64,000 bases of DNA from Escherichia coli (GTDB lineage: Bacteria > Pseudomonadota > Gammaproteobacteria > Enterobacterales > Enterobacteriaceae). Positions 7,310 to 8,184 of the stretch are shown here, piece by piece (within the stretch, counting starts at the first letter, position 1; every line of letters starts with the position of its first letter). The notes beneath the pieces are model-generated. The model was not told the DNA's origin, searched no databases, and worked only from the letters and a program-made list of their open reading frames with translations. A program made the position numbers and the translations under genes. The DNA is taken from the NCBI RefSeq assembly GCF_003334335.1, contig NZ_QOWQ01000020.1. One strand, 5' to 3'.

Positions 7310-7403
7310 AAAATAAATATATTCTGAAAAAATATGCCGACTCTTGCATGAGAGTGGGCATATTGCCATGCTGACCGGAGACTCATACAAGGATGTAAAA
7401 TTT

Positions 7404-7784
7404 ATGTTACGTATATTTATCCCAACATCTAACGGTAAGATTTCCAGACGTCGTTATATATTTTCATTTATTTTAATAAATTTCATTTTTGCCTTTCTTA
7501 TTATCTTTTTTAACGATGGAGAAGCAGGCTTTCTTGTTATAGTCTCTACCATCGTACTCCATTATCTCGTCATCAACATGAATTGCCAGCGACTCCGTGA
7601 TAGTGGTTTCATCTATATAAAAACTTATGTTTTTGGTACATTAGCAGTATATATCATCTCTATCATCACAATGATAGCCGAAGATTTTGCCTGTTCAGGC
7701 AATGGTTCGATGATTTTTTTGATTTGTTATTTTTCCACTTTCAGTATGCTAATGCTTGCACCTACTGATTCATCAAAACAATAG
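7404..7784 (+). CDS. yigG: small inner membrane protein YigG (DUF805-like), function unknown
   Basis: Track ORF from 7344; known protein starts [18 protein letters not shown] (ATG 7404); AT-rich coding sequence. Confidence 0.85.
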
Positions 7785-7797
7785 TTATGGAGTATTT

Positions 7798-8178
7798 ATG
7801 AGTAAGGAATATATGAACGATGGTTCATTAAGTGAAAAATGGAAATACCGATTTAATTTTTATGATCAACATGGTTTTCCTGGATTCTGGGGGGCAACAC
7901 CAGAATATAAAGCAGCATTTAAAGCATTAAAAGTAAGACAACGCTTAACTATTCAAATGAATTTCATTGCTTTCTTCTGTTCCTGGATATATTTATTTGT
8001 CCTGGGGTTATGGAAAAAAGCAATTATAGTTCTATTACTTGGTATTCTATCTCTATTTGTTGGTGCACTAATTGGCGTTAACATTCTGGGAATTGCCGTA
8101 GCAGCCTATGTTGCTGTTAACACGAACAAATGGTTCTATGAGAAAGAGGTAAAAGGGTTAAATACCTGGAGCCTTTGA
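7798..8178 (+). CDS. yigF: small inner membrane protein YigF (DUF2628), function unknown
   Basis: Track ORF from 7756; known start MSKEYMNDGSLSEKWKYRF with GGAG SD; AT-rich. Confidence 0.85.
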   Translation: MSKEYMNDGSLSEKWKYRFNFYDQHGFPGFWGATPEYKAAFKALKVRQRLTIQMNFIAFFCSWIYLFVLGLWKKAIIVLLLGILSLFVGALIGVNILGIAVAAYVAVNTNKWFYEKEVKGLNTWSL

Positions 8179-8184
8179 ATAACA

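Follow-up and report, generated by a model that had tools for sequence, protein, structure and literature searches.

An AT-rich yigG–yigF islet, probably of foreign origin, at the rarD–corA junction of Escherichia coli

Based on base composition, synteny and allele comparisons, we propose that the spacer between the convergent genes rarD and corA of Escherichia coli is a xenogeneic, AT-rich accessory islet, in which a bicistronic yigG–yigF unit encodes two small inner-membrane proteins and whose site is empty in most relatives. We place the probability of this reading at roughly 0.8. The islet lies within a 64,000-nucleotide stretch of contig NZ_QOWQ01000020.1 (RefSeq assembly GCF_003334335.1), which we call the window, and several complete E. 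coli genomes match positions 7200–8300 of it with 100% identity and have the two ORFs (open reading frames) annotated as yigG and yigF. An earlier note, made from the letters of the window, had singled out 7310–8180 as AT-rich relative to its flanks. The G+C content (GC) of that segment is indeed 0.339 (33.9%), against a mean of 0.524 and a standard deviation of 0.036 for all 871-bp segments of the window (z ~ −6). No other stretch of this size in the 64 kb has a GC as low, the runner-up reaching 0.414 at 24001, and the AT-run that the note quoted is present at ~7474–7515. When followed in 50-bp steps, the drop extends from just past the stop codon of rarD (7309) to that of corA (8221). Codon usage also sets the pair apart from its neighbours. 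GC at third codon positions (GC3) is 0.31 in yigG and 0.29 in yigF versus 0.62 in rarD and corA, and an index akin to the codon adaptation index (CAI-like) is 0.520 and 0.506, respectively, versus 0.691 ± 0.044 for 36 long ORFs of the window, which places both genes ~4 standard deviations lower (z ~ −4) and under the minimum of the reference set.

Independent reports bear on this exact locus. MG1655 has 78 ‘promoter islands’, and the yigF/yigG region, which is among them, is listed as bound by H-NS in all chromatin immunoprecipitation data sets (PMC3661553, Table 1); both Nakamura et al. and Lawrence and Ochman predicted a foreign origin for it (PMC3661553). In vivo protein occupancy display (IPOD-HR; bioRxiv 10.1101/2020.01.29.924811) places yigF–yigG–rarD in a small extended protein-occupancy domain of low transcription, and an H-NS-repressed intragenic promoter inside yigG has been dissected in vitro (PMC7229825). 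From this literature, H-NS would coat the islet and keep yigGF nearly silent during laboratory growth. The foreign, AT-rich, H-NS-silenced nature of the locus, as well as its unknown function, had already been published; the interpretation offered in the earlier note is supported, but it is not new. In our own promoter scan the islet yielded 2 sites versus 4.3 expected in shuffles keeping the dinucleotide content and, given this lack of excess, the ‘promoter island’ would seem to reflect AT-richness alone. The yigGF locus shares AT-richness, atypical codons and patchiness with H-NS-silenced islets and promoter islands (the Shavkunov/Ozoline list, which names the locus itself; the intragenic promoters of the Grainger laboratory) and does not differ from them in kind. 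What the present analysis adds is the history of the locus: an empty site in most relatives, varied alternative cargo that includes a type VI effector/immunity pair, diverged alleles and their exchange between genera.

The junction is unoccupied in most of the family. RarD was used to fetch the locus from 80 species-representative Enterobacteriaceae genomes, and RarD, CorA and any cargo were located by tblastn. As three of the 80 contigs end before corA, the tally comprises 77 species genomes plus three E. coli loci, again 80 loci. A gap of 37–150 bp separates rarD from corA in 56 of these 80 loci, among them the sampled Citrobacter, Kluyvera, Lelliottia, Leclercia and Buttiauxella and most Enterobacter, Klebsiella and Raoultella species. 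Being by far the commonest state, the empty site is taken as ancestral. The yigG–yigF pair occupies this exact position in Escherichia species, Superficieibacter electus and Intestinirhabdus alba, and also in Salmonella Typhimurium, Kosakonia cowanii and one further genome; Foldseek searches retrieved YigG orthologues from Atlantibacter, Pseudescherichia, Phytobacter and Mangrovibacter. The suggestion in the earlier note that the islet is old is supported: at least five genera have the pair at this position, and identity between the proteins falls as low as 25–50%. In other species the junction holds unrelated cargo, such as a desaturase-like gene (in one case with a PhnD-like gene), an endonuclease/exonuclease/phosphatase-family gene or a 430-aa membrane protein. 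This variety of unrelated cargo suggests that the rarD–corA junction is a general hotspot for small insertions.

Within E. coli, too, the pair is not universal at the site: yigGF (at least 80% of 7200–8300) is present in 2962 of 5426 complete genomes, and an allele of ~82% identity was found in ~566 records. About half of the genomes (2623 of 5426) harbor a cassette of DUF3289 (YPO3983 family) and DUF943 genes. Identified through type VI secretion bioinformatics, DUF3289 has been shown to be a colicin-M-like periplasmic toxin, with DUF943 as its immunity protein (Geller et al. 2024, PMC11148199). This pair uses the same junction, is likewise a two-gene AT-rich cassette and is alternative or additional to yigGF in E. 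coli and Salmonella; it is unrelated to YigG and YigF in both sequence and fold and does not occur in the window. A third module, consisting of a small minus-strand membrane ORF and a degenerate yigG-like remnant, occurs in 1431 of 5426 genomes, and a yigF–corA′–DUF3289 junction that combines both cargos occurs in 299 of 5426. The alternative E. coli junction types cease to be homologous at the final codons of rarD on one side and at the stop codon of corA on the other. In genomes with the effector cassette immediately after rarD, a 5′ remnant of yigG devoid of a start codon persists to the left of the cassette, which implies that the cassette displaced yigGF in that lineage. In the compound forms, a 147-nt 3′ fragment of corA lies to the left of DUF3289–DUF943 and forms a direct repeat with the intact corA on the right. 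The fragment is a footprint of the arrival of the cassette, and the repeat could permit its precise excision by homologous recombination. In a genome of the E. coli O104:H4 type (L002), an unannotated frame at ~2280–2575 (+) codes for a yigG-like C-terminal part that is the third of its kind and very divergent (…GAKRIRDTGCKAIYF…EGVRCES…); it adjoins a minus-strand membrane ORF of 105–120 aa and belongs to the third module.

Salmonella displays a comparable diversity. S. arizonae (L016) and S. diarizonae (L019) have the DUF3289–DUF943 pair at the junction and S. Typhimurium (L086) has yigG–yigF, and the same two alternative cargos are therefore found between rarD and corA in both E. coli and Salmonella. 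In E. whittamii, yigG–yigF is followed by an orphan DUF943 gene. Other strains and species have other cargo at the junction, and in some strains DUF3289–DUF943 has displaced yigGF.

How might the islet travel? It contains no transposase or integrase ORF and no PHROGs match, a search for terminal repeats and target-site duplications returned only short, chance-level repeats, and scans of IMG/VR with YigG and YigF profiles recovered no relatives. Matches in a phage collection to two unannotated records of 1.6 and 3.5 kb were set aside, as they look like host fragments. ‘Plasmid’ matches from E. coli, Salmonella and Kosakonia were likewise rejected as evidence of mobility: they carry recQ–pldA–rarD–corA–uvrD. 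Four PLSDB records (NZ_OY843411.1, NZ_CP047533.1, NZ_CP019447.1 and NZ_CP134663.1), three of 94–97 kb with recQ–pldA–yigI–rarD–…–corA–uvrD and the fourth of 4.9 Mb, look like chromosomal contigs mislabelled as plasmids. The idea of a horizontally acquired insertion put forward in the earlier note is therefore upheld as far as acquisition is concerned, by composition and patchiness, but not in the sense of an inserted mobile element, whose hallmarks are missing. Instead, we propose that homologous recombination through its conserved flanks, rarD and corA, would both spread the islet and replace it, across species and genera. This interpretation draws on the lack of mobile-element features, on the breaks that fall exactly at the rarD and corA ends and on the identities and synonymous divergence (dS) of the alleles. 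Among the genera compared, RarD is 81–100% and CorA 91–100% identical. YigF of K-12 is 84% identical to that of S. Typhimurium and 83% identical to that of Superficieibacter, but only 70% identical to the allele of E. coli AR_451, whose RarD and CorA are ~100% identical to those of K-12. Between the two E. coli alleles, dS amounts to 0.70 for yigG and 1.25 for yigF versus 0.11–0.17 for the flanks. The yigF gene tree disagrees with the host tree, whereas YigG identities of 76%, 57% and 45% track host relatedness more closely, and this difference points to partly different histories of the two genes. Between genera, YigG diverges much faster than YigF (45–57% versus 83–84% identity).

The genes run in the order pldA (−), yigI, rarD (+), yigG (+), yigF (+), corA (−), yigE, uvrD, and the islet is the spacer between the two convergent genes (Table 1). 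A gap of 13 nt separates yigG from yigF; together with the ribosome-binding site of yigF, this short distance makes the two genes look like a single operon. An in-frame ATG at 7368 was rejected as the conserved start of yigG, because in E. whittamii an in-frame stop separates it from 7404. No third ORF was found in the islet. Are the two genes real? Their ratios of nonsynonymous to synonymous substitution rates (dN/dS), estimated from the K-12, AR_451 and E. whittamii alleles and, for yigF, also Superficieibacter, are 0.16–0.27 for yigG and 0.04–0.15 for yigF, as compared with 0.01–0.07 for flanking genes, and both reading frames are intact in several genera. The two genes evolve faster than their neighbours, yet both are under purifying selection and are real genes. 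Copies of IS1 reside inside or beside the islet in several E. coli genomes (records H1, H17, H102 and H106), and in strain SCZE5 yigG is a pseudogene with an internal stop; these cases show that the islet is decaying in some lineages.

Table 1. Features of the rarD–corA junction (window positions unless another genome is named)
Feature	Coordinates	Strand	Remarks
rarD	6419..7309	+	EamA-family transporter, conserved left flank; from ORF and annotation
AT-rich islet	7310..8220		~0.9 kb; entire spacer, rarD stop codon to corA stop codon
Stem-loop	7331..7364	+	3′ of rarD, 5′ of yigG; A6 run before it on the plus strand
yigG	7404..7784	+	126 aa; plausible ribosome-binding site AAGGA at 7389–7393, 10 nt upstream
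yigF	7798..8178	+	126 aa; plausible ribosome-binding site GGAG at 7789–7792
G+C-rich hairpin	8185..8209		Bidirectional terminator-like, common to the convergent yigF and corA transcripts; hit by the terminator scan on either strand
corA	8221..9171	−	Mg2+/Co2+ transporter, conserved right flank; from ORF and annotation
147-nt corA 3′ fragment	L002 2599–2745; L104 4520–4666; L105 4579–4725		In other E. coli genomes

Two structured elements border the genes. The terminator-like hairpin beyond yigF has a minimum free energy (MFE) of −17.5 kcal/mol on the plus strand, where a U6 run follows (z −3.8), and of −21 kcal/mol on the minus strand (z −4.2). At the other end, the leader segment 7310–7403 folds with an MFE of −23.7 kcal/mol (z = −3.6), and its stem-loop is conserved among Escherichia, Salmonella and Superficieibacter; two of its 14 pairs show compensatory changes, and one pair displays five pair types. 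On the minus strand the A6 run becomes a U6 run after the hairpin, whereas no U-run follows it on the plus strand. Judging by its shape, the element resembles an intrinsic terminator for minus-strand islet transcripts heading to rarD more than a classic rarD terminator; it could act as a terminator of rarD, as a terminator of antisense transcripts or as a structure of the yigG 5′ untranslated region. An Rfam search of 6300–9700 at a permissive threshold gave chance-level matches only. In the leader of corA, an ORF of 18 codons with a TTG start (9323–9379, minus strand; translation (L/M)DTPSRYWLTILSSRINS) corresponds to ysgD (‘YsgD/CorL family’), annotated at the equivalent place in other E. 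coli and Salmonella records. Elsewhere in the window, the next-lowest-GC stretches are 24001–24871, 42351–43221, 50001–50871 and 60071–60941 (GC 0.41–0.44), and the ORF at 60613–62163 (+) has the lowest codon-adaptation value of the 36 long ORFs (0.545), with a GC3 of 0.46.

YigG is a predicted four-helix inner-membrane protein, with helices at residues 15–38, 42–67, 72–92 and 100–117 in an AlphaFold2 (AF2) model whose predicted local distance difference test score (pLDDT) is 83. It passes the NCBIfam equivalog model NF008474 (PRK11371) with 255.6 bits over a cut-off of 217. The earlier note had called the protein DUF805-like and quoted a GKISRRRY motif, which is found at residues 11–18. A divergent resemblance to DUF805 does exist, although it is weaker than the note implied: K-12 YigG matches Pfam DUF805 (PF05656) with E = 0.023, short of significance, and among 12 YigG-family sequences four match at E <= 1e-3 (best 5.8e-5) and 11 at E <= 0.1. 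The DUF805 proteins YhaH and YhaI of E. coli are similar to YigG in size and number of membrane helices. In hhalign comparisons with these two proteins, GKISRRRY of YigG, representing an N-terminal G-[KR]-x-S-R-R-x-Y motif, falls on GRARRKEYW, and CQRLRDSG, from a central R-L-R-D-S-G loop, falls on RRLHDTD, with E = 9e-4 and a probability of 22% from shallow profiles. Once orthologues are set aside, most proteins that Foldseek returns for YigG belong to DUF805, with weak scores (E = 0.7–10; template modelling scores, TM-scores, of 0.4–0.65). Unlike DUF805 at large, the YigG clade is limited to some Enterobacteriaceae and has two invariant cysteines, C61 and C97, which are unaligned to YhaH or YhaI. 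We regard YigG as a divergent relative of DUF805 rather than as a demonstrated member.

The case of YigF is clear: by sequence and predicted fold it belongs to DUF2628, in line with the DUF2628-like label of the earlier note. The protein matches Pfam DUF2628 (PF10947) with an i-Evalue of 5.2e-10, residues 17–117 covering model positions 9–91 of 93, and the quoted motif GLWKKAIIVLLLGIL corresponds to residues 70–84. In its AF2 model (pLDDT 92.9; predicted TM-score, pTM, 0.84), the ~50 N-terminal residues would constitute a helical soluble part that is followed by long hydrophobic helices. The annotated proteins among the top 50 Foldseek matches in AFDB50 are all DUF2628, with TM-scores of 0.5–0.99, mostly at least 0.76. 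An alignment of 66 family members reveals that W15 and F19 are invariant, that R18 is nearly so and that a GLW(K/R)KA turn is a consensus feature. The family is present across several phyla; the YigF-like subfamily is small, with 293 clusters at E <= 1e-3 in an exhaustive profile search of 1.84 billion representatives, and it is paired with a DUF805-like gene only in rarD–corA islets. For DUF2628 as a whole, no structural relative has been solved. A sequence search of the PDB returned no meaningful match for either YigG or YigF. Beyond the islet, genomic contexts were obtained from seven look-ups plus a Pantoea plasmid locus, of which two contigs were too short and six were informative. In these six contexts the genes of distant YigF homologues mostly stand alone in surroundings unrelated to one another and a DUF805 gene lies beside none of them; a constant requirement of YigF for a DUF805 partner finds no support there. 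Two distant homologues on metagenome contigs (L091 4276–5049 and L101 518–1270) are each followed by an overlapping gene for a protein of ~250 aa. The two downstream proteins are mutually related (30% identity over 136 aa, E = 2e-16), neither of them matches Pfam, and their gene may be an alternative conserved partner for the YigF (DUF2628) family.

What could the two proteins do? In rarD–corA islets, YigG-like and YigF-like proteins remain paired down to 25% and 33% identity, which suggests that they act together there. Tentatively, and with low confidence, we propose that YigG and YigF would form a small inner-membrane pair or complex with an accessory role in the envelope; an enzyme or a transporter is unlikely. 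The only functional hint comes from Salmonella, in which deletion of yigG lessens attachment to polystyrene, spinach and tomato and lowers tolerance to a higher chlorine dose (PMC3579871). Complementation was partial and, according to the authors, yigG is absent from S. Enteritidis (PMC3579871). A search of the literature for functional work on DUF805 or DUF2628 was without result.

Several points speak against our interpretation. The Salmonella phenotypes are modest and their complementation is incomplete (PMC3579871). Distant YigF homologues are mostly alone or accompanied by a different partner and not by a DUF805 gene, so that the pairing may be specific to the rarD–corA islet and not obligatory. 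The pair could also, though less probably, have come down from an early Enterobacteriaceae ancestor with many losses on the way. On that account yigG–yigF would be an ancestral resident, inherited vertically and lost many times, whose AT-richness is maintained by mutation or selection bias associated with H-NS. The identical position and orientation in at least five genera, the deep divergence (identity down to 25–33%) and YigG identities that roughly follow host relatedness all fit such a history. However, the yigF tree is incongruent, K-12 being nearer to Salmonella and Superficieibacter than to the second E. coli allele, and dS between the two E. coli alleles is 4–10 times that of the flanks. 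Moreover, a clean empty site in 56 of 80 loci would call for very many independent precise losses, and a GC3 of 0.3 betrays no amelioration toward the host value. We therefore judge purely vertical inheritance unlikely. A more radical view denies the ORFs any protein function and lets the segment count solely as AT-rich DNA, either a promoter island bound by H-NS or a spacer by which the convergent transcripts of rarD and corA are insulated. The place of the segment among the 78 published islands, with little productive transcription, its silence in laboratory conditions and the IS1 insertions and yigG pseudogene of some genomes could be invoked in its favor. This view is nevertheless highly unlikely, given that both ORFs are intact across genera with dN/dS of 0.04–0.27, that the AF2 models are confident, that the YigF family spans several phyla and that promoter-like sites do not exceed those of composition-matched shuffles (2 versus 4.3).

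If the pair is a foreign islet with functional genes, its role might lie outside the envelope function that we tentatively favor. Immunity proteins to pore-formers are usually small polytopic inner-membrane proteins, which is what YigG and YigF are both predicted to be. The two could then be orphan immunity-like proteins against membrane-targeting toxins (type VI, contact-dependent inhibition or pore-forming colicins), and the junction a hotspot of interbacterial conflict. The validated DUF3289 effector with DUF943 at the same junction in E. coli and in Salmonella arizonae and diarizonae, the orphan DUF943 beside yigG–yigF in E. whittamii and the 299 E. coli genomes in which yigGF stands next to the effector/immunity pair are in keeping with this idea, as are the fast divergence of YigG (45–57% identity, against 83–84% for YigF) and the deeply diverged alleles within E. 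coli. Were it correct, the fast-evolving YigG would set specificity and diverged alleles would persist as different toxins circulate, a scenario to which we give little credence. No toxin gene shares an operon with the pair at any yigGF locus seen, and where DUF3289–DUF943 is present it is split from yigGF by the corA fragment. The dN/dS values are well under 1, PADLOC has no family for YigG or YigF at E <= 1, and the supplementary tables of the type VI effector/immunity survey list neither DUF805 nor DUF2628. In addition, the other cargo of the site is unrelated to conflict (desaturase-like, endonuclease/exonuclease/phosphatase-family and PhnD-like genes), which is what a generic hotspot would hold. 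An immunity role is thus distinctly unlikely. That yigG–yigF might encode a membrane toxin/antitoxin, or a phage defence module of the abortive-infection type, is scarcely credible to us, even though a two-gene operon for small membrane proteins in a variable, silenced islet has the appearance of one and one distant YigF homologue adjoins an AAA_21 ATPase gene and a YafT-like gene. Neither PADLOC nor PHROGs gave a match, relatives are missing from IMG/VR and from real phage genomes, a single deletion of yigG is viable in Salmonella and, apart from that AAA_21/YafT-like context, the six distant YigF loci feature no recognisable defence island.

What are the implications of a xenogeneic yigG–yigF islet? 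YigG and YigF offer an easily testable case in which two widespread families, DUF805 and DUF2628, are paired under purifying selection. If the immunity reading were true, it would provide the first function for DUF805 and DUF2628. More generally, a clear yigGF phenotype would annotate many genes across bacteria.

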